Source: Patescibacteria group bacterium (GTDB lineage Bacteria > Patescibacteriota > Patescibacteriia > UBA9934 > GWF2-40-263). Taken from it: a stretch of 64,000 bases of DNA. Each line of letters opens with the position of its first letter. The stretch's first letter is position 1. The notes under the pieces are model-generated. The model did no database searches and was not told where the DNA came from. It saw only the letters and a program-made list of their open reading frames with translations. The stretch is taken from assembly GCA_038064815.1 (NCBI GenBank), contig JBBTSF010000064.1:2308-66307 (forward strand), read 5' to 3'. A program made the translations under genes and the position numbers. Below are positions 13,789 to 62,173 of this stretch, piece by piece.

Positions 13789-13907
13789 ACCCTTCCATCA
13801 TACAGTGTTTTATTTGAGGGAGTAACCCCTTATTTTTTTGGTTGCGATCTTGACGCAAGTGCTTTTTTGTTTTATGATCTTGGGCCGTTCATTGGAGTGT
13901 ACAGACC

Positions 13908-14585
13908 ATGGGAAGAATTTTTTGCCTCGGCGGAGGCGGATACGCGATTGATTTCGACGAGCAGCTCGATCGTTGGTGGCTCTCGCTTGCCGGCGCTCAG
14001 AGGCCGCGCATTGCGTTCATCCCAACCGCCACGGGCGACTCCCTTCACGTAATTGACGTCTTCACACGGAGCTTCAGAAACGAGGCTGCATCGATCGCAA
14101 CACTTCGTCTCTTCGAACGTGACGTGGTCGACCTCGACAGATTTCTCCGCGGCGTCGACCTGGTCTACGTGCATGGCGGTAACACAGCGAGCATGCTCGC
14201 GGTCTGGCGCGCACACGGCTTGGACGCGGCGCTCAAGCGCGCTTCTGCACGTGGACTCGTGATGGGTGGAAGCAGCGCCGGCGCCATCTGCTGGGGCCTG
14301 GGAGGAACGACCGATTCCTTCGGCGACATCCGCATTCTGCACGACGGTCTAGGACTGCTCAACGTCTCCATCTCGCCTCACCATGAGACGGAAGGACGAC
14401 GACCTCTGTTTGAACAGGCAATCAAGGAGGGAAGTCTCTGCCCGGGTTACGGAATCGACAACGGGGTCGGCCTGCTCTTTGAAGACGGAACGCTCAAGGA
14501 GTCTGTGAGTGCTCGTTCCTGGGCACGGGCACGTCTGACGGGCACCGACTTGCTCGAAGAGTGTCCCATCGAATTGCTCAGCTGA
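13908..14585 (+). CDS. peptidase S51 family protein (dipeptidase E / cyanophycinase-like), GC-rich
   Basis: RIAFIPTATGD...LVYVHGGNTASMLAVWRAHGLD...GLVMGGSSAGAICWG.. contains the S51 catalytic Ser context and the glutamine amidotransferase-like fold. About 63% GC. Confidence 0.7.
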   Translation: MGRIFCLGGGGYAIDFDEQLDRWWLSLAGAQRPRIAFIPTATGDSLHVIDVFTRSFRNEAASIATLRLFERDVVDLDRFLRGVDLVYVHGGNTASMLAVWRAHGLDAALKRASARGLVMGGSSAGAICWGLGGTTDSFGDIRILHDGLGLLNVSISPHHETEGRRPLFEQAIKEGSLCPGYGIDNGVGLLFEDGTLKESVSARSWARARLTGTDLLEECPIELLS

Positions 14586-14842: not shown

Positions 14843-14915
14843 CGCTCTACCAGGTGTTCGATAAACATGAGTTCTCGGGCGGAGGAAACCACAAACCTGG
14901 TGGAGGATAGTAACC

Positions 14916-15836
14916 ATGGGCTTTCTCTTTTCGTGGGACCAGATCCAGCGTGAGCGGATCCCTGGCCCGGAAGACTTCGACTGTGTGCGGTCGCAAGTGA
15001 CGGAAGCCCTCTACCCCCATCCAGGCGTAGTCGCGGCTTCCGTGTATGGCTCTGTCGTGCGCGGCGATCATAATTGGCGAAGCGATCTCGACCTCATTGT
15101 TATCTGCCGAAACGCAGAAGAGCTGTGTGTGCGTGGATCGGTTGTCGAACTCATGAGCGATGCGTTCAATCGCAGAGTCGTCATCGTCCCTCACGTCTAT
15201 ACGGTTTCGGAGGCGCGGTCCGGTCAGCATCCGTTGGGCCCCTCCTACCGTTTTACGCTCGCACGGCTTGCGAATAACGGTGTCGCCAGTGGTCGGGTAC
15301 ATCAGTACCTGGTTTGCAGGGACAACGATATTCGCGTAGAGATGTGCAAGCGGATTCTGTCTGCTCGTCGATGTGTGGCAATCGCCCACGCGCAGTTCTG
15401 GGAGATGGTTCCCAATGGCGCGCATGACGACATGGAGCGATGGCTCGCTCAACGCGAGGTGCAGGGAGGATATCGCTTCCGCATCTTTCACTTGTACGTC
15501 AACATCGCCCGCTGGCTGCTGTGGTGGCATCACTGCAGCCTCATTAATGATGGCAAACGTGCAGTTTGCGAAGCGGTGATCAACAATGGTCTCTTTCGCC
15601 TCGTTCAGAGAGATTTCCAAATCCTCGTCGAGGCGGATAGGGCTTACGATGAGCTTCTCGATGACGCCCTCTCAGGCGCGGTGACGCGTGCCGAGTATCT
15701 TCAGAAGGTGCTTGAGCTGACAGCGATGGTTTTCACCGTTTCCATCGGGCTACTCCGCCGCGCGTCGCGCCTCATCACCGCACAATCGGTCCAATCCTCC
15801 AGGTTGACTACGTCCGCACGGCGAGCTGTCGCCTGA
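14916..15836 (+). CDS. nucleotidyltransferase-domain protein, ANT(3'')/ANT(9)-like: a pol-beta NTase fold plus a helical C-terminal domain, GC-rich
   Basis: VYGSVVRGDHNWRSDLDLIV matches the G-S...S-D-x-D nucleotidyltransferase motif of aminoglycoside adenylyltransferases. A roughly 180 aa alpha-helical C-terminal region follows. GGAGGA lies upstream. About 60% GC. Confidence 0.65.
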   Translation: MGFLFSWDQIQRERIPGPEDFDCVRSQVTEALYPHPGVVAASVYGSVVRGDHNWRSDLDLIVICRNAEELCVRGSVVELMSDAFNRRVVIVPHVYTVSEARSGQHPLGPSYRFTLARLANNGVASGRVHQYLVCRDNDIRVEMCKRILSARRCVAIAHAQFWEMVPNGAHDDMERWLAQREVQGGYRFRIFHLYVNIARWLLWWHHCSLINDGKRAVCEAVINNGLFRLVQRDFQILVEADRAYDELLDDALSGAVTRAEYLQKVLELTAMVFTVSIGLLRRASRLITAQSVQSSRLTTSARRAVA

Positions 15837-23302: not shown

Positions 23303-23439
23303 TCTCACCTTAAAAGTAGCGGTTTGGCGCCTTTGTTAAAGCCCTAAACCGCCGCTTTTAACAAATTAGGAGCTCGATAAACGGGGATAGTCCTCGCAAT
23401 CGACCTCTCGCGGCTTCGAGGTAGATAAGGAGACTGACC

Positions 23440-24081
23440 ATGTCCGACAAGGATGTGCTCGGTGGCATCGCTCTGGCCAGTGTGGTCGGACCGATCGGTG
23501 ATCTCAACAGCAAGCTCGCGGGCAAGGAGGGAGAGAAGTGGCTCGCGGCCTTCAAGCGGTTCCTCCGCGGGGAGAACCCCTGGCCAGAGGTCCCCCTCTG
23601 GCGGAAGGTCGGTGACCTGGCGATCGAGGTCAACCTCGATGCGCCGCCCGTGATCCCGTTCGCGGACGCGACGGTCGAGTGGACCAAGCCCGGCCAGACC
23701 GGGTGGATCCGGGTGGAGCGCATCGGCGACCTCCTGTTCGTTGGAGGCAACGAGGTGCTCCTGCATCTCGACGCCGGTCAGCTGAAGGGGAAGTCGATCG
23801 TCGGCACCGAGCTCCGGAAGAAGCTGGAGCGGGAGGCCACGCTCCACCCGAACATCCTCGATGCCCTCTTCGAGAACCAGCACCTGATCCCGGACAACCT
23901 GAAGCAGAACGAGGATGGCAACACCATCTACCTCTACTTCTGGTCCGTCGTCTACCGCCACTCGGGCGGCGACCTGTACGTCCGCTACGTGTACTTCAGC
24001 GGCGGGCGGTGGCACCGGCGCTGCAACTGGCTCGGCGGCCGCTTCGGCGGCCAGAGCCCGGCTGCGGTCTCCGCGAGTTAG
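23440..24081 (+). CDS. hypothetical protein of 213 aa, about 65% GC, no recognizable family
   Basis: Good RBS AAGGAGACTGACC ATG and non-repetitive protein-like composition. The overlapping antisense ORFs are GC-content artifacts. Confidence 0.55.
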   Translation: MSDKDVLGGIALASVVGPIGDLNSKLAGKEGEKWLAAFKRFLRGENPWPEVPLWRKVGDLAIEVNLDAPPVIPFADATVEWTKPGQTGWIRVERIGDLLFVGGNEVLLHLDAGQLKGKSIVGTELRKKLEREATLHPNILDALFENQHLIPDNLKQNEDGNTIYLYFWSVVYRHSGGDLYVRYVYFSGGRWHRRCNWLGGRFGGQSPAAVSAS

Positions 24082-36197: not shown

Positions 36198-36305
36198 AAG
36201 ATTCACAAAACAGGCCGTAAAGACGGCCTGTTTTGATTTTCGGCATTTTACAAAATGACATTGCCATGATAGAAAAGCCCCGTCACAAGGACAAGGAGGT
36301 TCCCC

Positions 36306-37298
36306 GTGAAAGTTGTGTTCATCAACGGCGATGGCATTGGGCCGGAGGTGATGAACATCACCCGCCGCGTCCTGGATGTCTTGGCGAGCGACCAGATCCA
36401 GTGGATCGAAGCCCATGCCGGGCGGCGGTGTCACGAGGCAACAGGAGAGTCGCTGCCGGCGGAAACGCTCGCACTCCTGCGCGAGCATCGTGTAGGCATC
36501 AAAGGCCCGACCGAAACGCCGAGTGGCGGAGGGTTCACGAGCGCCAACGTTCGTCTCCGTCAGGAGCTTGATCTGTTCGTAGGATTGCGTCCCGCGGTAT
36601 CGATGGGCTTGCCGGGCACGCGCGACAACGTCAACCTCGTGACGTTTCGCGAGAACACGGAAGGGCTCTACGCCTGCTCGGAGGAACAGACCGGTTTCAC
36701 GGTCGTCCTGACCGCGCGGTTCACGGCGGAGGGTATGCGGCGTCTGGCTGCCTCAGCATTCGTCTACGCCCTCGAGCACGGATACGATCACGTCACGCTT
36801 GTGACCAAAGAGAACATCCACAAGGTCTGGGGCCGGCTCTACCATGATGCGTTCAACACGGTCGCACAGATGCAGAACTTCCGCGGAATCCGCGTTGACC
36901 ACATGCTGGTCGATGCGATGTGTATGTCGCTCGTGAGGAATCCCAGCAAGTGGGGCGTCATCGTCACCGAGAATATGTTCGGGGACATTATCTCGGATCT
37001 GTGTGCGGGTCTCGTCGGCGGTCTGGGTGTCACGCCCGGCGCCAACATCGGCGCGCAGGTCGCGCTCTTCGAAGCTGTTCACGGCTCCGCTCCCGACATC
37101 GCGGGCATGGGCATCGCCAACCCGGCCGGCCTCCTGCTCTCGGGTGGGCTGCTCCTCGACCATCTCGGTCTGCGCGGATTGGGGAACCGCCTGCGCAACG
37201 CCATCGCGCAGGCCCTGCGGGCTGGCGAGTGGACGCGCGACATCGGCGGCGAGCTCAACACCTACCAGTTCACCCAGGCCGTCCTCGCCCGGGTGTAA
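36306..37298 (+). CDS. isocitrate / isopropylmalate dehydrogenase family protein, GC-rich with a GTG start
   Basis: MKVVFINGDGIGPEV...GIKGP.ETP...N(V/L)RL...DLFVGLRP...NTEG.Y.....DHMLVDAMCM is a conserved beta-decarboxylating dehydrogenase core. AAGGAGG lies 8 nt upstream of the GTG. About 65% GC. Confidence 0.75.
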   Translation: MKVVFINGDGIGPEVMNITRRVLDVLASDQIQWIEAHAGRRCHEATGESLPAETLALLREHRVGIKGPTETPSGGGFTSANVRLRQELDLFVGLRPAVSMGLPGTRDNVNLVTFRENTEGLYACSEEQTGFTVVLTARFTAEGMRRLAASAFVYALEHGYDHVTLVTKENIHKVWGRLYHDAFNTVAQMQNFRGIRVDHMLVDAMCMSLVRNPSKWGVIVTENMFGDIISDLCAGLVGGLGVTPGANIGAQVALFEAVHGSAPDIAGMGIANPAGLLLSGGLLLDHLGLRGLGNRLRNAIAQALRAGEWTRDIGGELNTYQFTQAVLARV

Positions 37299-50560: not shown

Positions 50561-51885
50561 ACATCGTCATGATCGGAACCGGATATGTTGGTCTCACCAC
50601 AGGTCTTGGATTTGCGGGGTTGGGACATCGTGTGGCCTGTGTAGACACAGATTCGCTCAAGATTGCGAAGCTTGATTTAGGTCAAGCGCCTTTTTATGAA
50701 CCGGGCTTGGACGCGCAACTTAAGACGCTTCAAGATCAAGGGCAGATTGTGTTCACGACGGATCTTTCTTCGGTGATGAGCGGGGCAGACGTCATCATGA
50801 TCGCGGTGCAAACTCCTCCGAAAGAAAATGGGGATGCGGATTTGGTGTATGTTCGTTCTGTTGCGGAAGAGGTGGGAAGATTGTTGGATCATGAGGCACT
50901 TATTATTACAAAAAGTACGGTTCCGGTCGGAACGAATCGTGTGGTCCTTGAGTTGATTCGTCAAACCATGTCGGCAAATGGAAGAGCAGAGCTCGCAAGT
51001 TTGATTCAGATTGCATCTGTCCCAGAATTTTTGCGCGAAGGTGCGGCCTTCGCAGATTTTTTGGAACCAGATCGTGTGGTGATTGGTGCCGATGATGATG
51101 TTGTTTTTGCAACGGTTGAGCAAATGCATGCAGGAATCAAAAGTGTGTTCATGCGTACGAGTATCGAATCGGCTGAGCTGATCAAAGTCAGCTCGAACGC
51201 GTTTCTTGCCACAAAGATTTCTTTCATCAACGAGATTGCAAACATTGCAGAAGGAACGGGAGCGGATGTGCGCGACATTGCTCGGGGAATCGGACTCGAT
51301 AAACGCATCGGCCCGCTTTTTCTGCGCGCAGGAATTGGATTCGGCGGCTCGTGTTTTCCAAAGGATGTGTCTGCGCTCAAGTCTTACGCCGGTGTGCATG
51401 GATATGATTTCAAATTGTTGAACGCCGTGATTGAGGTCAACAACAGACAGCGCGAATTATTTTTCAAAAAGATTCAATCGGTTCTTGGAACTCTCAAAGG
51501 ACGAAAGATTGGTGTGTGGGGACTCGCGTTCAAACCAGATACAGACGACATTCGAGATTCCGCGGCGATCGATTTGGTTCAACGGATTTTGGCGCACGGC
51601 GCGGAAGTCTCCGTGTACGATCCAAAAGCCATGCAAAATGCGATGCGTGTTTTACCCGACGAGGTTATTTACACACCCACTGCGATGGACGCAGCCATTG
51701 GGGCAGAGGCATTAATTGTTCTGACAGAATGGCCAGAATTTCGTGATGTGTCTTTTGCGTCTCTTCGTTCTCAAATGGTTGAGCCGATTATTTTTGATGG
51801 ACGCAACACTCTGGCAGATCTTGAACTTTCGGCGATCGGGTTCCGCTATTACGGAGTCGGAATATGCGACTCGCACAAATCGTAG
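50557..51885 (+). CDS. ugd: UDP-glucose / nucleotide-sugar 6-dehydrogenase
   Basis: GTGYVGL Rossmann motif and the catalytic Cys in GGSCFPKD. The ATGA overlaps the Nudix hydrolase stop. Confidence 0.85.
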   Translation: MNIVMIGTGYVGLTTGLGFAGLGHRVACVDTDSLKIAKLDLGQAPFYEPGLDAQLKTLQDQGQIVFTTDLSSVMSGADVIMIAVQTPPKENGDADLVYVRSVAEEVGRLLDHEALIITKSTVPVGTNRVVLELIRQTMSANGRAELASLIQIASVPEFLREGAAFADFLEPDRVVIGADDDVVFATVEQMHAGIKSVFMRTSIESAELIKVSSNAFLATKISFINEIANIAEGTGADVRDIARGIGLDKRIGPLFLRAGIGFGGSCFPKDVSALKSYAGVHGYDFKLLNAVIEVNNRQRELFFKKIQSVLGTLKGRKIGVWGLAFKPDTDDIRDSAAIDLVQRILAHGAEVSVYDPKAMQNAMRVLPDEVIYTPTAMDAAIGAEALIVLTEWPEFRDVSFASLRSQMVEPIIFDGRNTLADLELSAIGFRYYGVGICDSHKS

Positions 51886-53357
51886 CCTCGCCCTCAAAGA
51901 CTCTCGCCGCCCTGCTCGGGTCTTTTTGTTTGGGAATTTTATTTGGCCCTCTCTGTTTGTCTGTCGCAAGTCTATTTGTGTTGGTCCTGATTTTTTTCTT
52001 GCTGGTCGTTTGTCTTTTTCTCAAAAATGCAAAGCAACGTTTTCTTTTTTTATTTGCCCTCTTTTTTCTTGTCGGAATTTTTCGTTATCAACAAAGTGAA
52101 ATTCCTGCGGTGGTTGTCACGGCGGCTGATCGTGTTGGGAAAAGTGTCAGCGTGACAGGAATCGTTTCTTCACCGGTCGATCATCGCATTGATAGTCAAC
52201 ACGTGATCATCTCACATGTTTTTGTTGGAGATGAACCGGTCGATGGACGTGTGCTGGTGCGTTTTCTTTTGTATCCAGAAGTTTCTTTTCAAGATCGTGT
52301 GGAGTTTACCTGTCGGCTTGAGAAACCAGAACCGTTTAATGGGTTTGCTTACGATCGCTATCTGAATTCCCAGGGCGTGGTTGCTGTCTGTGGCTTTCCT
52401 GAGTTTGCGATTGTTGAGCAGACAAAATATCCAAATATCTTCGCTTGGATTTTACGTGGACGCGATGTACTTGTGACACAAATCAAACTGATTTTTTCTG
52501 AACCGTACGCGACGTTCGTGACAGGTCTGCTCTTTGGAGGAAGCTCTTCGTTCTCAACCGATCTACGAACCGATTTTGCACGCACGGGAACTTCACACAT
52601 TCTTGCCGCCTCCGGATTTAACGTCGCGCTTTTTTCCGTGGTCCTTTTAGAGTGGCTGCTTCAGAGTCCGTTGGGACGCAAGAAAGGATTGTTTGTGACC
52701 GCGGTCATTTTGTTTCTGTACCTCTTTGCCGCAGGCGCAACCGCTGCGGTATTACGTGCAACCCTAATGGCGAGTTTGCTCATTGTGCAAAAATGGATTG
52801 GCAGACGCGCGTGGATGGTGAACACGGTTCTGCTCACACTCACCATCATGCTTCTTTTGAACCCACGCATTCTTCTGGACGATGTCGGATTCCAACTTTC
52901 ATTTGTGGCAACGGTGAGTTTATTGTTTGTCACCCCACTATTTGAGAAGCGATTCCTTTTCTTCCCAGAACGATTCGGAATCCGTACGGCCATTGTCTCA
53001 TCTGTGATCGCGATCATTTTTACGTTACCGATCGTGATCTGGCATTTTGGACAGGTCTCACTTGTGGCGCCGCTCGTGAATTTACTTGTGCTTCCATTTA
53101 TTCCATTTGTGATGGCCGCATCTTTGATTGCACTTATCGCAAGTTTTATCTGGATGCCATTTGGATCTCTTCTCGCCCTTCCGGTCTGGGTGATCTCGTT
53201 TGCTTTACTCGAACTGATCCGCACCATGAGCACACTTTCGTTTGCAACGGTCACGGTTCCGATCGCGCATCTGATTGCCACCGTGATCGGTATTCTTCTC
53301 TTACTCTTTTTGTTTTCGCAACGTCATGTCCTCGGTCATTCGACACACACAAAATAA
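51864..53357 (+). CDS. comEC: ComEC/Rec2 competence protein, membrane-channel portion (DUF4131 plus competence domain)
   Basis: LLFGGSSSFSTDLRTDFARTGTSHILAASGFNVAL is the ComEC competence-domain signature. Polytopic. Confidence 0.8.
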   Translation: MRLAQIVASPSKTLAALLGSFCLGILFGPLCLSVASLFVLVLIFFLLVVCLFLKNAKQRFLFLFALFFLVGIFRYQQSEIPAVVVTAADRVGKSVSVTGIVSSPVDHRIDSQHVIISHVFVGDEPVDGRVLVRFLLYPEVSFQDRVEFTCRLEKPEPFNGFAYDRYLNSQGVVAVCGFPEFAIVEQTKYPNIFAWILRGRDVLVTQIKLIFSEPYATFVTGLLFGGSSSFSTDLRTDFARTGTSHILAASGFNVALFSVVLLEWLLQSPLGRKKGLFVTAVILFLYLFAAGATAAVLRATLMASLLIVQKWIGRRAWMVNTVLLTLTIMLLLNPRILLDDVGFQLSFVATVSLLFVTPLFEKRFLFFPERFGIRTAIVSSVIAIIFTLPIVIWHFGQVSLVAPLVNLLVLPFIPFVMAASLIALIASFIWMPFGSLLALPVWVISFALLELIRTMSTLSFATVTVPIAHLIATVIGILLLLFLFSQRHVLGHSTHTK

Positions 53358-54225
53358 GATTCGGTCGAAGTTTAAGCAGATTGCACTGAGTGTGTTCGTT
53401 CTTGTTTTGTTTTCCGTGTGGTCTCTCATGACGATCGCAAATCTTCAGCCACAAGGAAATTTACAGATGTGGGTTTTTGATATCGGCCAAGGTGACGCCA
53501 TTTTTATTCAGACAAAAGAAGGACAGCAAATTCTGATTGATGGAGGACGTGATCAAAAAATTCTTCAAAAACTTTCTTCGGTGATGTGGCCGTGGGATCG
53601 AACCATTGATGCGATTGTCGCGACTCATCCGGACGCAGATCACATCACAGGACTCATCTCTGTCCTTGATCGTTATCAGGTCAATACGATTTATGAAACC
53701 GGTGTGCGTGGAGAGACGCCGATGATTGATGCACTTGTTGAAGCGATTGGTCGGGAAGAGGCGGCACACACGATTTTGCGAGCGGGAGACAGATTCGATT
53801 TCGGAGACGTTCAATTTATGATCGAATGGCCGACGCAAGAGGCGGTGAATTCAGCAAAAGATCGGAACAACACATCCATCGTTTTAAAGCTTATCTATGG
53901 ATCTCATTCCATCTTGCTCACAGGAGATGCAGAAAAAGAGGTTGAAGCAGAAATAGCGAAAAAAATTGGCGATGTCGATGTGTTAAAAGTCGGTCATCAC
54001 GGAAGTGTTTCTTCGAGCACACTCACATTTCTTGAACAGATCAAACCAGAATATGCACTCATTCCTGTGGGAGAAAAAAATTCATACGGACACCCGCACC
54101 CGGTCGTGCTCTCTCGATTGATGCAAGTGGCCGCACAGATTTTTCGAACAGATCTTGATGGAGATATTCTGGTGACGACGGACGGAACCCATCTCCAGGT
54201 GGGACCCAAGTCCTTGCCATTTTGA
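53326..54225 (+). CDS. ComEC-type metallo-beta-lactamase domain protein; +1-frame ORF overlapping the comEC 3' end by 32 nt
   Basis: One TM helix, then MBL motifs: VFDIGQGDAI, ATHPDADHITGL, KVGHHGS. In canonical ComEC this domain is the C-terminus of the same polypeptide. Confidence 0.7.
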   Translation: MSSVIRHTQNKIRSKFKQIALSVFVLVLFSVWSLMTIANLQPQGNLQMWVFDIGQGDAIFIQTKEGQQILIDGGRDQKILQKLSSVMWPWDRTIDAIVATHPDADHITGLISVLDRYQVNTIYETGVRGETPMIDALVEAIGREEAAHTILRAGDRFDFGDVQFMIEWPTQEAVNSAKDRNNTSIVLKLIYGSHSILLTGDAEKEVEAEIAKKIGDVDVLKVGHHGSVSSSTLTFLEQIKPEYALIPVGEKNSYGHPHPVVLSRLMQVAAQIFRTDLDGDILVTTDGTHLQVGPKSLPF

Positions 54226-54264
54226 GAAATCGATGCTAGTCTTCCACTAAATTGATAAATATCT

Positions 54265-54732
54265 ATGGCAAATATCGAACAAACACTCGTACTCCTCAAG
54301 CCGGACGCACTTCAACGCGATCTTCTTGGTGAGATTACTTCTCGCTTCGAACGCAAAGGAATGAAGATTGTGGGATTGAAATTCATTCATCTCACAGAGG
54401 AGTTGCTTAATGAACACTATGTGCATCTTGCAGAGAAACCATTCTTTCCAAGTTTGAAACAGTTCATGATGCAGACACCTGTGGTCGCGATGGTACTTGA
54501 AGGGTACGACACCGTGGCTGAAGTGCGTAAGCTTGTTGGTTCAACCAACCCACGACAAGCAGACGCTGGAACGATTCGCGCGGATCTCTCCATGAATGTT
54601 CCATCGAACTTGATTCACGCTTCTGATTCTCTCGAAGCCGCACAAACAGAAGTGAAGCGATTTTTTGCAGAGAGTGAATTGTTCTCCTACGAAAAAATTA
54701 CAGACCGCTATCATTACGGAGAAGGTGTCTAA
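54265..54732 (+). CDS. ndk: nucleoside diphosphate kinase
   Basis: LVLLKPDALQR...GLKF... and the catalytic His in NLIHASDS, a G-to-A variant of NxxHGSD. Confidence 0.9.
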   Translation: MANIEQTLVLLKPDALQRDLLGEITSRFERKGMKIVGLKFIHLTEELLNEHYVHLAEKPFFPSLKQFMMQTPVVAMVLEGYDTVAEVRKLVGSTNPRQADAGTIRADLSMNVPSNLIHASDSLEAAQTEVKRFFAESELFSYEKITDRYHYGEGV

Positions 54733-54771
54733 GAATAAAAAATCATCGGCTACATGCCAATGATTTTTTGT

Positions 54772-55869
54772 TTAGTCATTTTTGACAAACTGATCGAGAA
54801 ACTCGCCGATCGTCTGCATGTCCTGAATGTTGGCTTCTTCTGTGTATTGATGGGCGTTGTAGTATCCCGATCCGATCGGCACACAGCGAATGCCTTTTGC
54901 GTTGAACACGGTTGCATCTGATCCGCCAAAGGTTTCAAAGTAATTTGGCTTGAGACTCATGGAGGCAAATGTTTTTTCTAGTCGTTCGAAGAGCGGGTGA
55001 TCTTGTGTCAGAGCATATCCACTAAACTCGAGCGTGTTTTTGATTTCACATTTCGCTCCGTGCTTCTGAACAACGTCTTCGATCGTTTTTGTCACGCGAT
55101 GCATTTCACTGAGTGCCTTTTCTGTCTCAAAGCTTCGTAGTTCTGCTTGGAAGGTGACAGATCCAGGAACGCTGTTACGCGCGGTTCCTGACTGAAATAT
55201 TCCGACGTTCCAAGTCACTCCTTCCGTGCTGTAGCCCCATGGCAGAGACATGAGTGCATCACATGCCGCATGAAGCGCGTTGATTCCGTTTTCTGGTTCG
55301 CGGGGGTGGACGATTTTTCCGATGATCGTTGCATCCATTTTGATCATCGCGGGAGCTTTGATCACGACTTGTGTGACAGGGCCGTCTTCGTCGAGCACCA
55401 ACCCAATTTTTGCACTGAGCAAGGAGTAATCCGCTTGAAGCGCTCCGAGCAATCCTGTTTCTTCTCCACGGGTGAGAAGGACTTCGATAGGGCGATGGGT
55501 GCTGTGGTCGCGCTTTGCCATCACGGCAAGAAATTCGATGAGAACGGCCAGACCTGTTTTTGGATCGGCTCCCAGAATCCCGGTTCCGTTTGAGCGGATC
55601 ACATCTCCGTCGATCGTGTAGTCAGGATTTGGAAGCGGTTCTGGAATGTCTAAGTGTGTTGAAAGAAGAATGGCTTCGCCTTGACCTGGAATTTTTGCCA
55701 CGATGTTTCGAAACGAATCGTCTTCCCAAGCGACACCGGCGTCCGTGAGACGCTTTTTTGTGTAGATCAACACCTCGTTTTCGTTTGGATAAATCTCGTT
55801 AATCATCATCAACTCAATGAACGTTTTTTGCAGTTGTTCTTTTGGGATCATATTTTTTTTAATACTCAT
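54772..55869 (-). CDS. M20-family metallopeptidase (peptidase T / M20B-like)
   Basis: STHLDIPEP H-x-D, GADPKTG, and RGEETGLLGA metal ligand context. The ATG is at 55869; the track ORF starts at a TTG. Confidence 0.65.
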   Translation of the reverse strand: MSIKKNMIPKEQLQKTFIELMMINEIYPNENEVLIYTKKRLTDAGVAWEDDSFRNIVAKIPGQGEAILLSTHLDIPEPLPNPDYTIDGDVIRSNGTGILGADPKTGLAVLIEFLAVMAKRDHSTHRPIEVLLTRGEETGLLGALQADYSLLSAKIGLVLDEDGPVTQVVIKAPAMIKMDATIIGKIVHPREPENGINALHAACDALMSLPWGYSTEGVTWNVGIFQSGTARNSVPGSVTFQAELRSFETEKALSEMHRVTKTIEDVVQKHGAKCEIKNTLEFSGYALTQDHPLFERLEKTFASMSLKPNYFETFGGSDATVFNAKGIRCVPIGSGYYNAHQYTEEANIQDMQTIGEFLDQFVKND

Positions 55870-55958
55870 CAAGCGTCTGTTTGTTCAAACGTCTGAGGAC
55901 TATCGAGAAAAAATGGGTGAGGTGGCAGCGCATTCGTTGCGTTGCCACCTCACGAGAA

Positions 55959-56777
55959 TCACACGTGTCGGCCGACCCACCAGGTCGACCGGGCGATCAT
56001 GCCCAGTTCGCCGGTGTGGCCCTCGTAGTACGGGTTGACTTCCGTTGCGAGTCCTTGGGACTCCATGAAAATTCCAGCCCGACGGAAGTGTTCCTGCACC
56101 TGCCCGCGGTTGAGAATGGCCTTCTGATAGGTCCCTTCCCAAGCGAGTTCGCTCGTCGATCGATCGGTCACCCGAACGTCGATGGACATGATGCCCGAGT
56201 GTTCGTCGAACCGAGGGGCTCGATCGTCGAAGACCGGACGACCGTTGAGTTCAGCCTCCCACCGCATGGGGCTCCGTGTACGGCATCGGTCGAGGTAACC
56301 CTCACCGATATAGTCCATGACGAATACCCCCGTGTGGGAAACCGGACGAACCATGCCGTAGGTGACCCGGGCCAAGAGCTCCGGATCAACGATGTCGCCG
56401 AACGAGTTACCGAGCAGGATGCCCGCGCCAAGTCGTTCGTCGCTCTTCCATGTAGCAAGGTCACCGACGTGGAGTTCCACCCGCGGATCGTCGCAATGAG
56501 CCCGACGGGCTTTGTCGACGCACTTGGGGGAGAGATCCACCCCGACGATTCGTCGCACACCGCGATTGAGCAGGGAAGCGATGTGCCGACCCGTGCCGAA
56601 GCATGGGAGGAACACCGACCTTGGAACCCTGCCGATCAGCCGCAGAACGGTGTCGACTTCGGCGTCTGCGAGCGCGCGATCGTCATGAACGTCGCGATCG
56701 AGCTCTTCCATGACGTCGTAGTGACGCGCGATGTCGAACTGGGCTGGATGCTGGATCTGCGATGAGAGAGGCGCCAT
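55959..56777 (-). CDS. class I SAM-dependent methyltransferase, GC-rich
   Basis: Motif I VFLPCFGTGRHIASLL and motif II RIVGVDLS. The start is the ATG at 56777, which overlaps the TAA of the upstream gene as TAATG. The 306-codon N-terminal extension in the track ORF is Arg/Pro-rich GC-frame noise. Confidence 0.7.
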   Translation of the reverse strand: MAPLSSQIQHPAQFDIARHYDVMEELDRDVHDDRALADAEVDTVLRLIGRVPRSVFLPCFGTGRHIASLLNRGVRRIVGVDLSPKCVDKARRAHCDDPRVELHVGDLATWKSDERLGAGILLGNSFGDIVDPELLARVTYGMVRPVSHTGVFVMDYIGEGYLDRCRTRSPMRWEAELNGRPVFDDRAPRFDEHSGIMSIDVRVTDRSTSELAWEGTYQKAILNRGQVQEHFRRAGIFMESQGLATEVNPYYEGHTGELGMIARSTWWVGRHV

Positions 56778-58633
56778 TACAGCTCGTCCGTGAAGACGAC
56801 CGGGCCCTCTTCGGCATCGTCCGCGCCGTGGATGCGGAAGCTCTTGCTTCGCAACGTCATCGTCGCGCCAGCGAGCTCGACCAACGAACCGGCCTTCCCG
56901 TGGAACAGGAAGAACGGGGTCAGGCGAGTGCGCGCGGCACGATCGATGGCGACCCGGCCCATCGCGTCGCGGTAGGCAACCGTGTAGCGGGCCGAGGCGA
57001 TGATGTGCTGAGCGACCACGGGGTGCGGCAGAGCCGCGACATCCTTGAGATGCGTGACCCACGCCGTCTGATTCTGGGCCTGGGGCCCGAGCACGATGCT
57101 GCGAGATCCCCAGGACTGGTTCTTGCCGTCCCATGCGGCGAACTTGGTGAGGTGAAGGTCGCGCTGGTTGGCGACCTCGGACTCCCAGGTTGAGCCGTTG
57201 ACGACCTGCGTCTGCGCGACGCAGTTGTGCAGGGTCGTGAGGGTTGCCTGGCCACCGAGGCTGACGATGCGGTCCATGACGGTACGATCCCAGAGGGCGG
57301 CCATCAGGCTCTTGCTCTCGAGGAAATACCACAGGGGGTTCATGACGTACGCGCCCTGTTCGTGCCAACGCTTCAGCAGTTCGAGTGCGTTGGTGTTGAC
57401 CAGGTTGTCCAGGTATCCGAAGCGGTAGATCACCGTCTCCGGCCCGAGGTCGAGGGGCATCCCCTCGTCGCTTCCGTGGACGAACTCGAGGAACCCGAGG
57501 CTCCGGAGTCGACCGAGGAAGTCGCGGTTCCACGCGGCGCGCGCGGTTGCGGAGATGTCCTTGTGGGGCTCCCACGCCGTCTGCACGCGCTCGTGGATCT
57601 CCGCGAGCGGCCTGTCGAACCAGAGTTCGGCATCCACGCCCGCGTCGCGCAGCGCCTTGATGAAGCAGGCCTGCTCCCACGTGTACTCGGCCCACTCGTT
57701 GGTGGCGAGCACAATGTACCGTCGCCCCTTGAGAAGCCGCAGGTAGCCGTTGAGCATGCTCAGCGGCAGGCCGTAGCCGAGCTCCATGGCGTGCGCCATG
57801 CCCTGACCGCCGGGGCAGCTCTCGAACTCCGTGATGACCGGGCGCAGCTTCTTGGTGACGGGATCGAGGACCACCACGATGTCGGGGCGCATCACGCCCA
57901 CCGTGTCTCCGTGGAGAAGGGCGGGGATGCGATCCGGCTTGCGGTAGCTGAGCAGATTGCGCGGTGTCTCGTAGTCGCGGTGGGTCTCGTAAACGGCCTG
58001 GAAGGCCACGCCGAGAGCCTGACCAAGCTCACCGAGCTCCGTCACGAAGTATGTCGGCAGAGCGAACGGATCGATCATCTGGCGCCACGTGACGCCGGTG
58101 CCACCCTTGTAGCCGACGCCAGTCGCCGTCATGATCCGCCGCGTCTCTTCGACGCTGGGCTCGACGGGCTTGCCGATGCGGTCAGCGAACTTGCTGACGC
58201 CCGCGGCCTGGTCGTATCCGTCGACGAGCTCGGGTTCGACCAGGAGAAGGTCTGCGAGGTTCGGGGTGACGCCACCGATCTTGGGGATGTTCTCGATGAC
58301 AACCCACTTGCGCGGCTGACCCTTGCGAACTCCTTCCTCCGCCCGCCACTTGAACCCGATGATGGCGTACCGCTCCTCGAGCGCATTCAGAATTGGACCG
58401 TTCTTCGGCCACTCCGTGCTCTGCTCGGGGACGGTCACACCGTCCAGCTCGACCTTGCCGGCGAGCACTTCGTCTCGCCACTTCTTGGTCGTTCCATGTG
58501 GGGTGCCATTGGGCCCTGGCTTGAAGCCGTGCTTCACCCGCACTGCGAGAATCGCATCGGGCTTCGCCTTGGCTGTTGTTCCGCCCTCCCAGCTTCCGCT
58601 GGTGGTCGGACGATCTTCGGTGAGCAATGTCAT
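56777..58633 (-). CDS. hypothetical 618 aa protein with an ATP-grasp-like motif, GC-rich, translationally coupled to the methyltransferase
   Basis: ATG at 58633 with GGAGGG nine nt upstream. PVITEFESCPGGQGMAHAMELGYGL resembles the ATP-grasp E-x-N-x-x-P-G segment of D-Ala-D-Ala ligase, here E-x-E-x-x-P-G. Non-repetitive protein. About 65% GC. Confidence 0.5.
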   Translation of the reverse strand: MTLLTEDRPTTSGSWEGGTTAKAKPDAILAVRVKHGFKPGPNGTPHGTTKKWRDEVLAGKVELDGVTVPEQSTEWPKNGPILNALEERYAIIGFKWRAEEGVRKGQPRKWVVIENIPKIGGVTPNLADLLLVEPELVDGYDQAAGVSKFADRIGKPVEPSVEETRRIMTATGVGYKGGTGVTWRQMIDPFALPTYFVTELGELGQALGVAFQAVYETHRDYETPRNLLSYRKPDRIPALLHGDTVGVMRPDIVVVLDPVTKKLRPVITEFESCPGGQGMAHAMELGYGLPLSMLNGYLRLLKGRRYIVLATNEWAEYTWEQACFIKALRDAGVDAELWFDRPLAEIHERVQTAWEPHKDISATARAAWNRDFLGRLRSLGFLEFVHGSDEGMPLDLGPETVIYRFGYLDNLVNTNALELLKRWHEQGAYVMNPLWYFLESKSLMAALWDRTVMDRIVSLGGQATLTTLHNCVAQTQVVNGSTWESEVANQRDLHLTKFAAWDGKNQSWGSRSIVLGPQAQNQTAWVTHLKDVAALPHPVVAQHIIASARYTVAYRDAMGRVAIDRAARTRLTPFFLFHGKAGSLVELAGATMTLRSKSFRIHGADDAEEGPVVFTDEL

Positions 58634-58726
58634 CTTCGCTATCCCTCCATCACTGGTTGCGTTCTGGTCATTCCTCCAACAAGCATTTCTGCTCGCAGAG
58701 GGAAAACAGGACACAACCCTTAAACA

Positions 58727-58757
58727 AAATCGCTACGGATTCTCTCCGTAGCGATCT
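58727..58757. promoter_or_regulatory. hairpin at the GC-island / host boundary
   Basis: ATCGCTACGG-attctctc-CGTAGCGAT, immediately upstream of the 618 aa gene. GC composition changes here. Confidence 0.3.
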
Positions 58758-58938
58758 GTCTTTCTAGTTGCTTTAAGGAAAACAGCTAGGCAGGTAGACT
58801 ACGGAAAGAGAAGTTGACACGAATAAAGGTAACCCAAAGTGTTGTAAGGTCCTTTACGTGTGTCATCTTTTTTCCGTAGACATTGTTCATATCGTCGAAA
58901 AGTATAAAGAACAGGAAAATAGTTGTCAAATTTATTGT

Positions 58939-59727
58939 ATGATCGGCATCTTTGATTCTGGGATTGGTGGGTTGGGAGTGATGTATGTAATTCGTCAGAA
59001 ATCTGCAAACGCAGACCTGATTTATTTTGGAGATTTGGCGAATATGCCATACGGTCCGAAGTCCGCAGACGAGCTTTTTACGCTCACCATGCGAGCGATG
59101 GCGTTTCTTGGTTCTCAGGGTGCGACGCAATATGTCTCTGCATGTAATTCGGTTTCCGTTTCTGTCATTCAACCTCTTTTGCAATCACAAGGTTTACGCG
59201 ATGTGCGCATCATCGAGATGGTTCAGCCAGCCGCAAAGGCACTCAGCCATCAGACGTCGGGAAAAATATTGGCTGCGGCGACAGAGGCAACCGTCCGATC
59301 CGGAATGTATGAACGCGTGCTTGCCACGTACGGGCTTGATGTCGAAATGATTGCTCTACCAGAACTCGCCAGTGCGATTGAGCGAAATGAAGAGGAAGAG
59401 ATTTTGCGTTCGATCATTTCTCCTGCGATTGAAAAAGCGATTGAGATAAATGCAAAGACGTTTGTGTTTGGTTGCACGCAATATCCATTTGTAAAAAATC
59501 TTTTCGCGAAGGTGTTTGGTGAAAGGGAACATGAAATCAAGTTATTCGATCCAAGCGAAGCGGTTGCGGAAGAAACAATTAAAAATTTTGAGATGAAGGG
59601 AAGTGGAACGAATAAGTTTTTTGTTTCCAAGTCGTCAGAAGTATTTGAGGACACGGTTCGGCGTTTGTTTGGCACGAATTCACAAGTGATTTGTGTTGAT
59701 GTGGATAAAACTGTGCACAAAGAGTGA
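58939..59727 (+). CDS. murI: glutamate racemase
   Basis: IGIFDSGIGGLGV and the catalytic GCTQYP second cysteine motif. The ATG is at 58939. Confidence 0.85.
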   Translation: MIGIFDSGIGGLGVMYVIRQKSANADLIYFGDLANMPYGPKSADELFTLTMRAMAFLGSQGATQYVSACNSVSVSVIQPLLQSQGLRDVRIIEMVQPAAKALSHQTSGKILAAATEATVRSGMYERVLATYGLDVEMIALPELASAIERNEEEEILRSIISPAIEKAIEINAKTFVFGCTQYPFVKNLFAKVFGEREHEIKLFDPSEAVAEETIKNFEMKGSGTNKFFVSKSSEVFEDTVRRLFGTNSQVICVDVDKTVHKE

Positions 59728-59841
59728 TTAACCAAGCCTTTCCACGCTTGTCGCTTTCTGTCAGAGTGATACATTTAAATTGCTTCACGATCAGATGGGT
59801 GTGCCTATTAAATACAAGTCACTTGATGGTCTGAAATTGTT

Positions 59842-60051
59842 GTGCCACGCATGACAAAAGACCACACGGTTTATTCTTTCTGCGGCGACGACACGGTGGA
59901 CCAATCCTCTACCCTCACCGTTCTGCAGACGGATAGATATGACACTCGCTCTGTTCGAGTAACCGCATATCAGAATCCAATCACTTTGTTGCTAATCCGG
60001 GCCACCCATTTTCTTGTGAGGCACGAAAAAATCACGTTCATGGAAACGTGA
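59842..60051 (+). CDS. possible small protein of 69 aa inside the long leader region; alternatively non-coding
   Basis: The ORF ends inside the terminator stem at 60031-60058. No SD-like sequence upstream. Coding status unresolved. Confidence 0.2.
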   Translation: MPRMTKDHTVYSFCGDDTVDQSSTLTVLQTDRYDTRSVRVTAYQNPITLLLIRATHFLVRHEKITFMET

Positions 60052-60058
60052 TTTTTTT
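60031..60058 (+). terminator. strong intrinsic terminator 45 nt upstream of the membrane-protein operon
   Basis: AAAAAA-ATCACGT-tcatggaa-ACGTGAT-TTTTTTT. Confidence 0.6.
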
Positions 60059-60102
60059 ATTCACCTTTCATTTTTAAGAAGAGCCGGGTGGTGGTACAGT
60101 GA

Positions 60103-60471
60103 ATGCCTGTGAAACAGAATCATTTTTTGAATTTTTTGATCGTGGGAGGATACGCCTTTATTCCGTGGATTCTGATTTTATTTGTTTTATCTCTCACGTT
60201 TCATTTTCCGCATGCGGTATTTGTTCTTCTGCATTACGTGCTGAATGTTTTACTGTTCTTCATCGCATTTCGTTTCTTCTACCGAACTTACCCGCACGCA
60301 AACCCATTCTTTACGACGCTGAAGGTCCTCTTATTTCTCTGTCTGTTTGAAATTATCCTCTGGATTTTTTTCGGTCAGCCACAAAAACCATTCTTGAACT
60401 ATATTGATTTTCTTTTTCCCGCGTTTCTTATTGTGACCACTATTTATGCCGTCGGAAAACAACAAAACTAA
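60103..60471 (+). CDS. small polytopic membrane protein of 122 aa, paralog of the 62170..62526 product
   Basis: The C-terminus FLNYIDFLFPAFLIVTTIYAVGKQQN is homologous to FLNYVDWIFPMFLAVSTVYFVGKFFV in the second copy. Three to four TM helices. Confidence 0.6.
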   Translation: MPVKQNHFLNFLIVGGYAFIPWILILFVLSLTFHFPHAVFVLLHYVLNVLLFFIAFRFFYRTYPHANPFFTTLKVLLFLCLFEIILWIFFGQPQKPFLNYIDFLFPAFLIVTTIYAVGKQQN

Positions 60472-62173
60472 CATCCCAATTTTTTACTTCGATCGCGATT
60501 GCGGTTTGTGTCGCTATTGGACGAACTATTGGAAACAACTCACGGGAGATCATGTTGAGTATCGGGAATTTGAAGGGAAGGTTCCCGGCTCCTCAGAGTT
60601 TGTGGAAACAGATGGACGTGTTTTTTCTGGGGCGCAAGGCGTCGCACGACTTCTTTCTTACGCGCCGGGAAAAGGATGGTTTCTGTGGTTGTATAAACAT
60701 ATTCCACCGTTTGCGTGGATCAGCGAATTTGTTTACAAACAAGTCTCGAAGTGTCGCACGTGTGCGGCAAAATTCACTCGTCTTCTTTGGGGAGAAAATC
60801 TTCAACCCTCCACATTTTTTTTCACCCGTCGATTGTTTCTTCGATTGATCGGGCTTGTATACTTCATCGCTTTTTTGGCATTCGGTCTCCAGATCCCTGG
60901 ACTCATCGGAGAGCAGGGGATTCTTCCTGCAGGATCTTTTCTGAATAACGTTCATCAGATGTTTGGTTCCTGGTCGTTTTTGAATGTCCCCACGCTCGCA
61001 TGGATAAATAGTAGCGGATCATTTTTGCAAATGCTTGCGTTTATTGGCGCCGCGTTTGGTCTTCTTGCATTCATCGGCATCCAACTGGCGCCGATGTTTT
61101 TTGTCCTATGGATTTTGTATCTCTCGCTTTTTTACGCGGGGCAAACATTCATGGGATTTCAGTGGGACACCATGCTGCTCGAAGTTGGATTCCTCGCGAT
61201 CTTTTTTGCTCCCATGCGATTTGCCTCAAGAATTAATCCTTCCGCCATCGTTGTCTGGCTCTACCGGTTTTTAATTTTTCGTTTAATGCTTGGATCTGGT
61301 TTTGTGAAACTCGCAAGCGGAGATCTCTCTTGGCGATCTCTTTCCGCACTCGACTATCATTACTTCACCCAACCGATTCCAAATCCGATTTCTTGGTTTG
61401 CCCATCAGCTTCCGTTATTCATCAATCACGCGAGTGTATTGATGATGTTTGTCATTCAACTCATCTTGCCATTTTTTATTTTTGCACCACGCCGTTTTCG
61501 TTTCGCTGCCGCAACAGGGTTCGTCCTACTCGAAGGACTCATCGCATTCACCGGAAATTTTTCTTTCTTCAATTTACTCACATTGATTTTAGTCATCCCA
61601 CTTTTTGACGACGCGTTCTTTCGTTATAAAAAAAGTCACGCGCCCCACAAACAACCAAGTAAATTTTCTGTCTGGACCTATCGTAGTCTCGCAACACTCG
61701 TGATCGCTTTATTTCTTTTTCAAATCCCAACGCCGTTTCGTTTGGTGAATCCATATGGTGTGTTCGCAACGATCACAACATCACGCCAAGAGATTGTGAT
61801 GGAGGGAAGTATGGATGGAAAAAGTTGGCAGGCATATGAATTCAAGTACAAGCCGGGAGATGTGATGCGACATCCACCGGTGATCGCGCCCTATCAACCA
61901 CGATTGGATTGGCAAATGTGGTTTGCCGCGCTTTCTTCCTATGAACAGAATCCTTGGTTCTTAAAATTCGCGACTCAGTTGCTCAACGCCTCACCGGACG
62001 TCTTGTCTCTGCTCGCAAACGACCCATTCCACGGATCTCGTCCAAGGTACATTCGCGCAGCGTTGTACGAATATACCTTTACGACCATGGATGAACGTCG
62101 CGAAACGGGCGCGTGGTGGAAGCGAGAAGGGAAAGGTCTTTACATGCCGCAAATCCAAAGACGAACATTATGA
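60446..62173 (+). CDS. fusion of a DCC-type thiol-disulfide oxidoreductase domain (DUF393) with an HTTM / vitamin-K-dependent gamma-carboxylase-like (lipase-maturation-factor-like) membrane domain
   Basis: N-terminal IFYFDRDCGLCRYW matches the DCC D-G-x-C-x-L-C motif. A large polytopic HTTM-like body and a soluble C-terminal region follow. The 5' end overlaps the upstream gene by 26 nt. The ATGA overlaps the downstream paralog. Confidence 0.7.
   Translation: MPSENNKTNIPIFYFDRDCGLCRYWTNYWKQLTGDHVEYREFEGKVPGSSEFVETDGRVFSGAQGVARLLSYAPGKGWFLWLYKHIPPFAWISEFVYKQVSKCRTCAAKFTRLLWGENLQPSTFFFTRRLFLRLIGLVYFIAFLAFGLQIPGLIGEQGILPAGSFLNNVHQMFGSWSFLNVPTLAWINSSGSFLQMLAFIGAAFGLLAFIGIQLAPMFFVLWILYLSLFYAGQTFMGFQWDTMLLEVGFLAIFFAPMRFASRINPSAIVVWLYRFLIFRLMLGSGFVKLASGDLSWRSLSALDYHYFTQPIPNPISWFAHQLPLFINHASVLMMFVIQLILPFFIFAPRRFRFAAATGFVLLEGLIAFTGNFSFFNLLTLILVIPLFDDAFFRYKKSHAPHKQPSKFSVWTYRSLATLVIALFLFQIPTPFRLVNPYGVFATITTSRQEIVMEGSMDGKSWQAYEFKYKPGDVMRHPPVIAPYQPRLDWQMWFAALSSYEQNPWFLKFATQLLNASPDVLSLLANDPFHGSRPRYIRAALYEYTFTTMDERRETGAWWKREGKGLYMPQIQRRTL

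Follow-up and report, generated by a model that had tools for sequence, protein, structure and literature searches.

What does a GC-rich pair of overlapping genes do in a Patescibacterium, and how is it expressed? The pair lies in a 64,000-nucleotide stretch of contig JBBTSF010000064.1 from a Patescibacteria group bacterium (assembly GCA_038064815.1; this whole stretch is referred to here as the window). It encodes a large protein, which we call LIG, followed by a methyltransferase, MT. An initial annotation of the window, made by a model from the DNA letters, had described the two as a compact acquired module between host-like genes. We instead favor, at somewhat better than even chances, a reading in which LIG and MT form the core of a conserved Patescibacteria operon that comprises a promoter, a leader open reading frame (ORF), a terminator/antiterminator, LIG, MT, a further terminator and the gene for an M20 hydrolase, with control by ribosome stalling and small-amide chemistry as its business. 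The genes concerned, and the hairpin between the last two, are:

56777-58633, minus strand: LIG (ORF1), 618 amino acids (aa), ATG start, predicted ATP-grasp amide ligase of the glutathione-synthetase/GspS/Cp1B type

55959-56777, minus strand: MT (ORF2), 272 aa class I S-adenosylmethionine (SAM)-dependent methyltransferase, coupled to LIG through TAATG

55908-55953, minus strand: terminator-like hairpin and T-run in the gap between MT and M20, with 16-nucleotide (nt) arms that are 94% complementary

54772-55869, minus strand: M20, 365 aa PepT-like (tripeptidase-like) metallohydrolase, downstream of MT

The basic gene arrangement was as first described. LIG and MT are overlapping minus-strand genes; the TAA stop codon of LIG (56779-56777) overlaps the ATG of MT (56777-56775) as TAATG, and a GGAGGG ribosome-binding site (58648-58643) lies 9 nt ahead of the LIG start codon. 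The block had been put at about 65% GC, and we measured 0.637 for 55959-58720, compared with 0.463 for 53000-55900 and 0.437 for 58760-61700 on its two sides. It is the GC maximum of the whole window. The GC content at third codon positions (GC3) is 0.85 in LIG and 0.72 in MT, versus 0.51 in M20 and 0.44 in ndk. LIG and MT constitute a bicistronic unit between two terminators, with M20 adjacent to it and probably transcribed on its own.

The arrangement is widely conserved. In every locus that could be fetched, LIG, MT and M20 lie on one strand and in the same order (L001, L003, L004, L005, L008, L009, L011, L012, L015, L016, L017, L037, L039, L041, L042 and L043, the last from a complete 931 kb genome); in L038, LIG and MT run up to the end of the contig, which falls inside MT. 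These loci span Uhrbacteria, Magasanikbacteria, Kerfeldbacteria, Jacksonbacteria, Woykebacteria and other Patescibacteria. LIG and MT were found together in every relative in which their co-occurrence was examined. The genes around the trio are of at least six unrelated kinds (rpsL-aroA / ndk-comEC; an FAD oxidase / Ser-Thr kinases; clpP / ATP synthase; gap / pgk-eno; TGT and a C39 peptidase; a ROK kinase). In the window, LIG has MT, M20, murI, ndk and comEC as neighbors, and murI stands next to LIG only in the window's own clade. The M20 peptidase, taken at first for a plain host neighbor, is thus the one invariable neighbor of the pair, which it follows in about 20 Patescibacteria loci. Homologues of MT and M20 also share many contigs in database listings, consistent with co-location.

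Annotated proteins give an incomplete view of this locus. Hypothetical ORFs of 135, 107, 537, 773 and 224 aa have been called on the wrong strand over LIG and MT DNA in L002 (9941-10831), L042 (3304-4917) and L043 (2668-5929), and tblastn recovered intact LIG and MT on the opposite strand in all three. The LIG family is therefore under-counted in protein databases. A full-text search of the literature found no description of a LIG-MT-M20 operon or of attenuation in Patescibacteria. ATP-grasp ligation, SAM-dependent methylation, M20 hydrolysis and attenuation are themselves activities of known kinds.

The evidence for regulated expression lies upstream of LIG. No precursor peptide or other partner had been noticed near the pair, and a hairpin at 58727-58757 had been read as the compositional border of the block. 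This hairpin exists, with 11 pairs at 58729-58755 and 13 pairs at 58727-58757 when G-U pairs are counted, but it does more than mark a boundary: it serves as the terminator in a conserved regulatory leader that includes a 34-codon ORF with its own promoter, between murI and LIG. The elements of this region are:

58933-59727, plus strand: murI, the flanking gene on the LIG side

58901-58929, minus strand: sigma-70-type leader promoter, TTGACA, a 17 nt spacer and TATACT

58786-58890, minus strand: leader ORF (uORF) of 34 codons, MNNVYGKKMTHVKDLTTLWVTFIRVNFSFRSLPA, conserved across lineages

58867-58881, minus strand: segment a, the 5' strand of the long leader hairpin (anti-antiterminator), as predicted by folding

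58797-58813, minus strand: segment b, the 3' strand of the leader hairpin and the antiterminator partner, complementary to the 5' arm of the terminator

58722-58757, minus strand: segments c:d, the intrinsic terminator of the leader with its U-run, identified from the hairpin and from covariation

58634-58721, minus strand: spacer from the terminator to LIG, with a further stable hairpin at 58655-58719 and the GGAGGG ribosome-binding site of LIG

We compared 17 leaders from 15 independent lineages, whose sequences are otherwise hardly alignable, and found the same layout of promoter, uORF and terminator in all of them. The promoter in the window fits 11 of 12 consensus positions and is the sole strong promoter-like site on the minus strand between 54800 and 59300. 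Sixteen of the 17 related leaders have an exact TTGACA in the corresponding position, and none of the 17 has a promoter-like site between the leader terminator and LIG. In the window, the uORF starts 10 nt past the -10 box and stops 28 nt before the hairpin, and the LIG start is 93 nt farther on. The uORF is 27 codons long in L017 and 30-41 codons long in the other 16 leaders, all of which have a detected terminator; its stop codon precedes the terminator stem by 21-30 nt and its ATG precedes the terminator by 116-150 nt. When the longest ATG-initiated ORF in any frame between transcription start and terminator was compared with that in dinucleotide shuffles, p ranged from 0.009 to 0.065 per locus (Fisher 9e-11), and a test restricted to where the stop codon lies gave 4e-9. 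A crude scan of the window for further leaders of this architecture was insensitive and missed the known one.

The encoded peptides share a character more than a sequence. They are cationic, with 80 Lys and Arg against 10 Asp and Glu in 555 residues and with many K/R-x-K/R motifs, and they can be aligned only in positional features, namely a His at about position 11, a Trp and a C-terminal Arg. A single peptide family common to all uORFs was accordingly rejected. An in-frame Trp codon is present in 14 of the 15 lineages (7.3 expected, p 2e-4). His occurs within codons 10-15 in 11 of the 15 (2.9 expected, p 5e-6, for a codon window picked after inspection of the data).

The RNA structures are better preserved than the letters that form them. 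A GC-rich hairpin followed by a T-run was found in 16 of the 17 leaders, with none detected in L017, and an alignment of the 17 sequences shows compensatory changes at 7 of 10 stem pairs of the terminator. RNAalifold, run on a MAFFT alignment of the 17 leaders, recovered the terminator alone, the a:b helix being too divergent to align, and we therefore used per-sequence statistics for the other pairings. In the window, the a:b hairpin closes nt ~10 with nt ~94 (z-score -4.2), and the whole leader fold has a z-score of -6.6 at -98.8 kcal/mol. The hairpin at 58655-58719 in the spacer belongs to this fold, and may contribute to mRNA stability or to a second layer of control. In all 15 lineages, nt ~1-17 pair with nt ~91-107 although the sequences differ (mean z-score -3.3). 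When the uORF region was searched for its best complement to the terminator 5' arm, the alternative b:c duplex came out at nt 82-105 in 13 of the 15 lineages (mean z-score -2.1; p<=0.04 in 9 of 15). Its position is constant even though the type of terminator stem differs between lineages (CUACGGA, CCACCGC, CCCCGA or CCUCC). In this conserved leader the pairings a:b, b:c and c:d are thus mutually exclusive, and the gene pair behind it has no promoter of its own.

With its 1:2, 2:3 and 3:4 logic, this leader looks like a ribosome-mediated transcription attenuator. The same layout of a promoter, a short ORF, three pairings and a terminator is found in the trp, his and pheA attenuators, in the antibiotic-sensing ermK, vmlR and bmrCD leaders and in the arrest-peptide leaders TnaC and SpeFL. 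The length of the leader peptides (30-41 aa) and their cationic, His-rich character recall SpeFL (34 aa). LIG-MT is not an amino-acid biosynthesis operon, unlike the genes under the trp, his and pheA leaders. By analogy with these systems, a polymerase that starts from the promoter at 58929-58901 would stop at 58757-58722 whenever a:b forms, as it would in the absence of translation. A ribosome that reaches the uORF stop codon would cover b, again leading to termination. A ribosome stalled in the uORF between a and b, where the conserved His (codons 10-15) and Trp codons lie, would block a:b, the His codon being placed such that the stalled ribosome would cover a. The freed b would then pair with c, the terminator could not form and LIG and MT would be transcribed. 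Candidate causes of such a stall are low charging of His- or Trp-tRNA, a metabolite-dependent arrest peptide or a translation inhibitor.

Could the leader act without being translated? The leaders of the window and of its closest relative, L037, share 94-97% of their nucleotides, whereas the adjacent genes differ by about 0.4 synonymous substitutions per synonymous site (dS); the leader is therefore under strong constraint at the nucleotide level. In a comparison of the window with L003, the conserved blocks are stems and the variable blocks are loops. A metabolite-binding riboswitch or a protein-binding attenuator, in which the a:b hairpin is the sensor and the ORF incidental, would account for this pattern, for a nucleotide conservation far above that of synonymous sites, for a very stable and conserved fold whose closing helix varies in sequence between lineages, and for an ORF that has no ribosome-binding site. 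The main objection to it is the preservation of the ORF in 15 lineages (p ~1e-10), to which the constant spacing from stop codon to terminator and the conservation of in-frame His and Trp codons can be added. No Rfam family matched the leader even at E<=10, the sole hits being chance miRNA-hairpin matches below the gathering score, and there is little aptamer-like primary conservation outside the stems. We regard such a sensor as distinctly unlikely and continue with ribosome-mediated attenuation.

What, then, would be induced? LIG is recorded at NCBI as 'MAG: hypothetical protein AAB431_03100 [Patescibacteria group bacterium]'. It matched nothing in Pfam or NCBIfam at E<=1 and nothing in PADLOC, the GSH_synth_ATP, GSP_synth and CP_ATPgrasp models gave no match, and PDB sequence searches with LIG by itself and then with a 16-sequence profile returned nothing meaningful. 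Ten distant family members likewise had no Pfam domain at E<=0.01. A word-indexed search of 5.8 billion proteins yielded 16 relatives, and those with organism names were all from Patescibacteria. An exhaustive profile search of 1.84 billion cluster representatives raised the family to 489 proteins at E<=1e-3, in two size classes: a long form of about 600 aa and a short form of 420-480 aa that is missing the first ~140 residues. The family thus has no model in Pfam or NCBIfam, and among named loci its long form is seen only in Patescibacteria.

The fold is more informative. The initial annotation had noted that the protein has no P-loop, and the Walker A motif is indeed absent from LIG. It had also singled out an EFESCPGG segment, found at residues 269-276, as resembling an ATP-grasp motif with its Asn replaced by Glu, and this call was right in substance. 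Structural comparison supports the predicted ATP-grasp fold: LIG has the three-domain form with the permuted order of eukaryotic glutathione synthetase, and every one of its top structural neighbors is a carboxylate-amine ligase acting on small molecules. A lineage-specific N-terminal domain takes up residues ~1-150; for it we rejected both a PqqD-like recognition element of pathways to RiPPs (peptides synthesized by ribosomes and post-translationally modified) and a winged helix. A candidate paralogue of the ligase at 3393-4790 of L019 was rejected as well.

A profile of 102 LIG-family sequences reached one protein of solved structure by sequence, Cp1B (E 9.6e-6), a fungal E-64 ATP-grasp ligase (PDB 9cjn) that was characterized in 2025 and is the only sequence-detectable solved relative. 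In this alignment the R249-P-D251 segment of LIG corresponds to R-P-D of Cp1B, E269-x-E271 to E-I-N and K497 to the lysine of L-K-P; R249, D251 and E269 align with R139, D141 and E163, and E-F-E-S is the E-x-N metal/phosphoryl motif (E163/N165 in Cp1B) with Asn changed to Glu. R139, D141, E163 and N165 surround the nucleotide in Cp1B and are needed for activity by mutagenesis (PMC12568646). Across the 102 sequences D251, E269 and K441 are invariant, and R249, K497, W508, G509, R511, R570 and H602 are nearly so. E271, at the Asn position, is invariant in the 16 closest homologues and is Glu in the consensus TELES of the 102-sequence alignment. LIG thus shares its fold and, apart from the Glu at the Asn position, its catalytic motif positions with ATP-grasp enzymes of the glutathione-synthetase/GspS/Cp1B branch.

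LIG also differs from these enzymes. It is 14% identical to Cp1B, has Glu271 where Cp1B has Asn, carries the additional ~150 aa N-terminal domain and belongs to Patescibacteria, not fungi. Cp1B works with an Fe/2-oxoglutarate epoxidase (epoxysuccinate synthase) and an ANL amide-bond synthetase, neither of which is near LIG, whose partners are MT and M20. Identity to the circularly permuted ATP-grasp enzymes, eukaryotic-type glutathione synthetase and glutathionylspermidine synthetase/YgiC/YjfC, is 8-15%; that group too has Asn in the motif, LIG does not show its Pfam match, and no gamma-glutamylcysteine ligase or polyamine gene lies near LIG. Since these close structural relatives activate a small acid or short peptide at a carboxylate and couple it to an amino acid or a polyamine, LIG is expected to form a small-molecule amide bond.

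Short-form homologues occur on Chloroflexota-like contigs (L018 2940-5295, L019 4799-6983 and L032 36-4659), where recurring neighbors are a DAO-type FAD oxidase, an Fe-dependent alcohol dehydrogenase, an EamA transporter and an MttB-family (quaternary-amine) methyltransferase. This neighborhood suggests methylated-amine metabolism, which fits a small-molecule role of LIG.

The second gene proved to be a class I SAM-dependent methyltransferase, as had been proposed. MT scores above the Pfam cut-offs for Methyltransf_25 (32.2 bits, cut-off 27) and Methyltransf_11 (23.3 bits, cut-off 21.2), and its Gly-rich SAM motif reads LPCFGTGRH ... VGVDLS. Its nearest solved relatives are ToxA-type N-methyltransferases (5jdz at 3e-5). 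It matched the daptide N-methyltransferase model NF041820 at 31.3 bits, far below the cut-off of 175, and did not appear PIMT-like in the Pfam and NCBIfam scans. We found 81 close homologues, many of them on the same contigs as M20 homologues. A weak PADLOC match to 'mad2' raised a defense-system reading of MT, which we dropped as nothing else supported it.

M20 has the Pfam domains Peptidase_M20 and M20_dimer. It matches the PepT-like model TIGR01883 at 1.9e-67 (227.8 bits, below the cut-off of 274.25) and the PepT-like structures 3gb0 and 3rza at ~1e-46, and has 139 homologues at E<=1e-60. Candidate metal-binding and catalytic motifs, read from the sequence alone and not from a PepT alignment, are STHLD, GAD, GEE, LDED and AHQ. 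In nearly all related loci, MT and M20 are set apart by a GC-rich hairpin followed by a T-run.

From these assignments a route can be sketched. LIG would phosphorylate the carboxylate of a small acid, an amino acid or a short peptide and couple it to an amine; MT would methylate the product or a protected intermediate; and the separately transcribed M20 would cleave the same kind of amide bond. The outcome would be either a make/tailor/break cycle, for which carnosine synthase, carnosine N-methyltransferase and carnosinase offer an analogue, or a protect/modify/deprotect route as in the LysX/LysK, Puu and Ipu pathways and in butirosin synthesis with BtrJ/BtrG. The animal carnosine (anserine) pathway would be a parallel in all three enzyme classes, with an ATP-grasp ligase, a SAM-dependent N-methyltransferase and an M20 dipeptidase all directed at a single small peptide; demonstrated homology of its enzymes to LIG, MT and M20 does not go beyond the superfamily level, and they are not encoded in an operon. 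We infer that the locus likely serves to make and tailor, when induced under certain conditions, a small methylated peptide or amide, which M20 hydrolyses.

The same three enzymes admit another interpretation, in which the uORF product is itself the substrate. In such a RiPP-like system the cationic peptide would be the precursor, LIG would ligate something to it, MT would methylate it, M20 would trim it and the hairpin would be a leaky terminator of the sort often found after precursor genes. A ligase, a methyltransferase and a peptidase are a typical tailoring set; every lineage conserves, directly upstream, a translated-looking ORF of 30-41 codons that has a strong promoter of its own and a terminator; and His, Trp and the C-terminal Arg are conserved at the peptide level. 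PGM1 carries out such a ligation on ribosomal peptides in pheganomycin, a possible parallel for ligation at the C-terminus. Graspetide (microviridin-type) clusters with a methyltransferase likewise have a small upstream ORF beside their ATP-grasp and methyltransferase genes, and graspetide-like peptides were the analogy first drawn for the pair. This analogy did not hold up. Graspetides are made by RimK/MdnB-C-type ATP-grasp enzymes, are cross-linked through Asp and Glu, which a precursor core carries together with Ser, Thr or Lys, and have a PIMT-like methyltransferase, and the LIG-MT locus differs in all three respects: LIG falls in the small-molecule, glutathione-synthetase branch and is neither graspetide- nor PGM1-like, and the leader peptides are nearly devoid of Asp and Glu. 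The N-terminal domain of LIG is not a PqqD-like recognition element. Nor do enzyme and peptide co-vary, as the leader is 94-97% identical to that of L037 but the first 100 codons of LIG are 55% identical. The b:c antiterminator pairing would have no role in such a system, and the uORF has no Shine-Dalgarno sequence. We consider a ribosomal precursor improbable and prefer a small-molecule amide as the product.

A resistance function also deserves consideration. A short uORF with an antiterminator and a terminator is the layout of antibiotic-sensing attenuators such as erm, vmlR, lmo0919 and bmrCD, and the operon could respond to translation stress, with the uORF sensing drug-stalled ribosomes and LIG and MT modifying the drug or a ribosomal component. 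The cationic leader peptides with their many K/R-x-K/R motifs would suit this, as would the fast evolution of LIG and MT described below, which is typical of conflict genes. However, MT resembles small-molecule N-methyltransferases (ToxA and the daptide enzyme) and not rRNA methyltransferases, no known resistance family was matched in Pfam, NCBIfam or PADLOC, and a conserved PepT-like partner would be unexpected. Drug resistance therefore seems quite improbable to us as the purpose of this attenuated operon.

Was the pair acquired recently? The composition of the block suggests so: its GC content is 0.64 against 0.44-0.46 around it, GC3 reaches 0.85 and the borders are sharp, lying at two hairpins. 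A foreign two-gene island without functional connection to its neighbors would explain these features. Yet the same pair, in the same position relative to the leader and M20 and with the same GC3 excess, is found in lineages whose LIG proteins are only 35-57% identical; the excess over M20 and host genes amounts to 13-48 points and is present in every lineage. In the comparison of the window with L037, dS is 0.36 for MT and 0.41 for M20. MT and M20 have equal synonymous divergence and so share their history, and the pair is therefore not a recent acquisition. No direct repeats flank LIG-MT, no tRNA or integrase gene lies nearby, and no homologues of the pair were found on plasmids or phages, and a mobile-element origin was rejected on these grounds. 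Among the features of genomic islands only composition fits, as the pair is present in all relatives. The identity matrices of LIG, MT and M20, compared for tree congruence, are broadly concordant (Spearman 0.34-0.62) but too star-like to be decisive. The 'compact acquired two-enzyme module' of the initial annotation thus gives way to a pair that has the same GC excess in about 20 Patescibacteria lineages, and a recent foreign island is, in our judgment, highly improbable.

LIG and MT evolve quickly. Against L037, the nonsynonymous divergence (dN) of LIG is 0.203 at a dS of 0.68, giving a dN/dS ratio (omega) of 0.30. MT has a dN of 0.081 and an omega of 0.22, and M20 a dN of 0.005 and an omega of 0.012, a sign of very strong purifying selection. 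At the protein level LIG and MT thus evolve about 20 times faster than M20. Nucleotide identity to L037 (197-2083) drops at precisely the LIG start codon, from 94% to 57%, and is ~90% again in MT and M20; over the first 100 codons of LIG, which are 55% identical, dN is 0.33 and omega 0.39. The abrupt drop may reflect diversifying selection on the N-terminal domain. As for the GC3 excess, translational selection was rejected as its cause, since highly expressed host genes (fusA, rpsL, gap, eno and the atp genes) lack a high GC3. It may instead stem from GC-biased gene conversion, from the protection of a seldom transcribed unit against C-to-T decay linked to transcription, or from selection on the mRNA.

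Other GC-rich ORFs are scattered through the window, which again speaks against a single island. They include an isocitrate/isopropylmalate dehydrogenase (36273-37295, plus strand; GC 0.64, GC3 0.80) and a 218 aa ORF without a Pfam match (23425-24078, plus strand; GC3 0.90). Further ones lie at 11875-12711, 13878-14582 and 14871-15833 on the plus strand and at 854-1543 on the minus strand, and encode, as listed, a MOSC-domain protein, a peptidase S51, a nucleotidyltransferase and a MazG-like protein. GC-rich accessory genes are a recurrent feature of this ~47% GC genome.

Several observations weigh against the attenuated operon that we propose. In comparison with classical attenuators, this leader has no run of regulatory codons, with single conserved His and Trp codons in its place, and no Shine-Dalgarno sequence before the uORF (LIG has GGAGG), and its whole uORF lies inside the 1:2 hairpin. 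In most loci the uORF begins 8-15 nt after the -10 box. With so short a distance and no Shine-Dalgarno sequence, it would need leaderless or near-leaderless initiation, and we know of no demonstration of leaderless-type initiation in Patescibacteria. In two lineages, represented by L012 and L038, the b:c pairing is not at the expected place. Changes between two close pairs of leaders, sorted by codon position, number 6, 7 and 14, a weak third-position bias from counts too small to tell coding from non-coding sequence. With respect to the enzymes, the change of the canonical Asn to Glu at residue 271 could alter metal handling or the chemistry of LIG, and the hairpin between MT and M20 means that M20 may be tied to the pair by function without being strictly co-transcribed. 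Finally, the operon model offers no account of the fast evolution of LIG and MT or of their persistent GC3 excess.

A broader proposal would take in some of these features. The leader could encode a sensory arrest peptide of a new class, 30-41 aa long and cationic with a conserved His at ~11 and a conserved Trp, that reports a specific metabolite or the charging of His- or Trp-tRNA and so switches on a small-molecule pathway specific to Patescibacteria, or the same peptide could be the substrate of RiPP-like chemistry built on a glutathione-synthetase-type ligase. Either way LIG, with its ~490 clusters, would be a new enzyme family, and the GC3 excess together with the ~20-fold faster evolution would be signs of an unusual evolutionary regime, for example conflict or biased gene conversion. 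We think it unlikely that this proposal holds as a whole.

Patescibacteria (the candidate phyla radiation) have tiny genomes with little recognizable biosynthesis, and almost no gene regulation has been characterized in them. Here, a three-enzyme module has been kept in many of their lineages behind a dedicated and strongly conserved attenuator. If our reading of the leader is true, it would be the first ribosome-dependent attenuator described in Patescibacteria and a handle on what these cells sense. Identification of the LIG-MT product would extend the sparse biochemistry of these symbionts by a metabolite, which might be a methylated peptide.

Two further genes near the locus are of note. 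A 575 aa fusion protein (60446-62173, plus strand) joins an N-terminal DCC1-like thiol-disulfide oxidoreductase to the lipase-maturation-factor domains LMF1 and LMF1_C, an architecture unusual for this group. ComEC is split into two plus-strand ORFs, 51864-53357 and 53326-54225, which overlap by 32 nt; the first carries the DUF4131 and Competence domains and the second the metallo-beta-lactamase domain, and the same split is found in the syntenic loci L001, L002 and L042.

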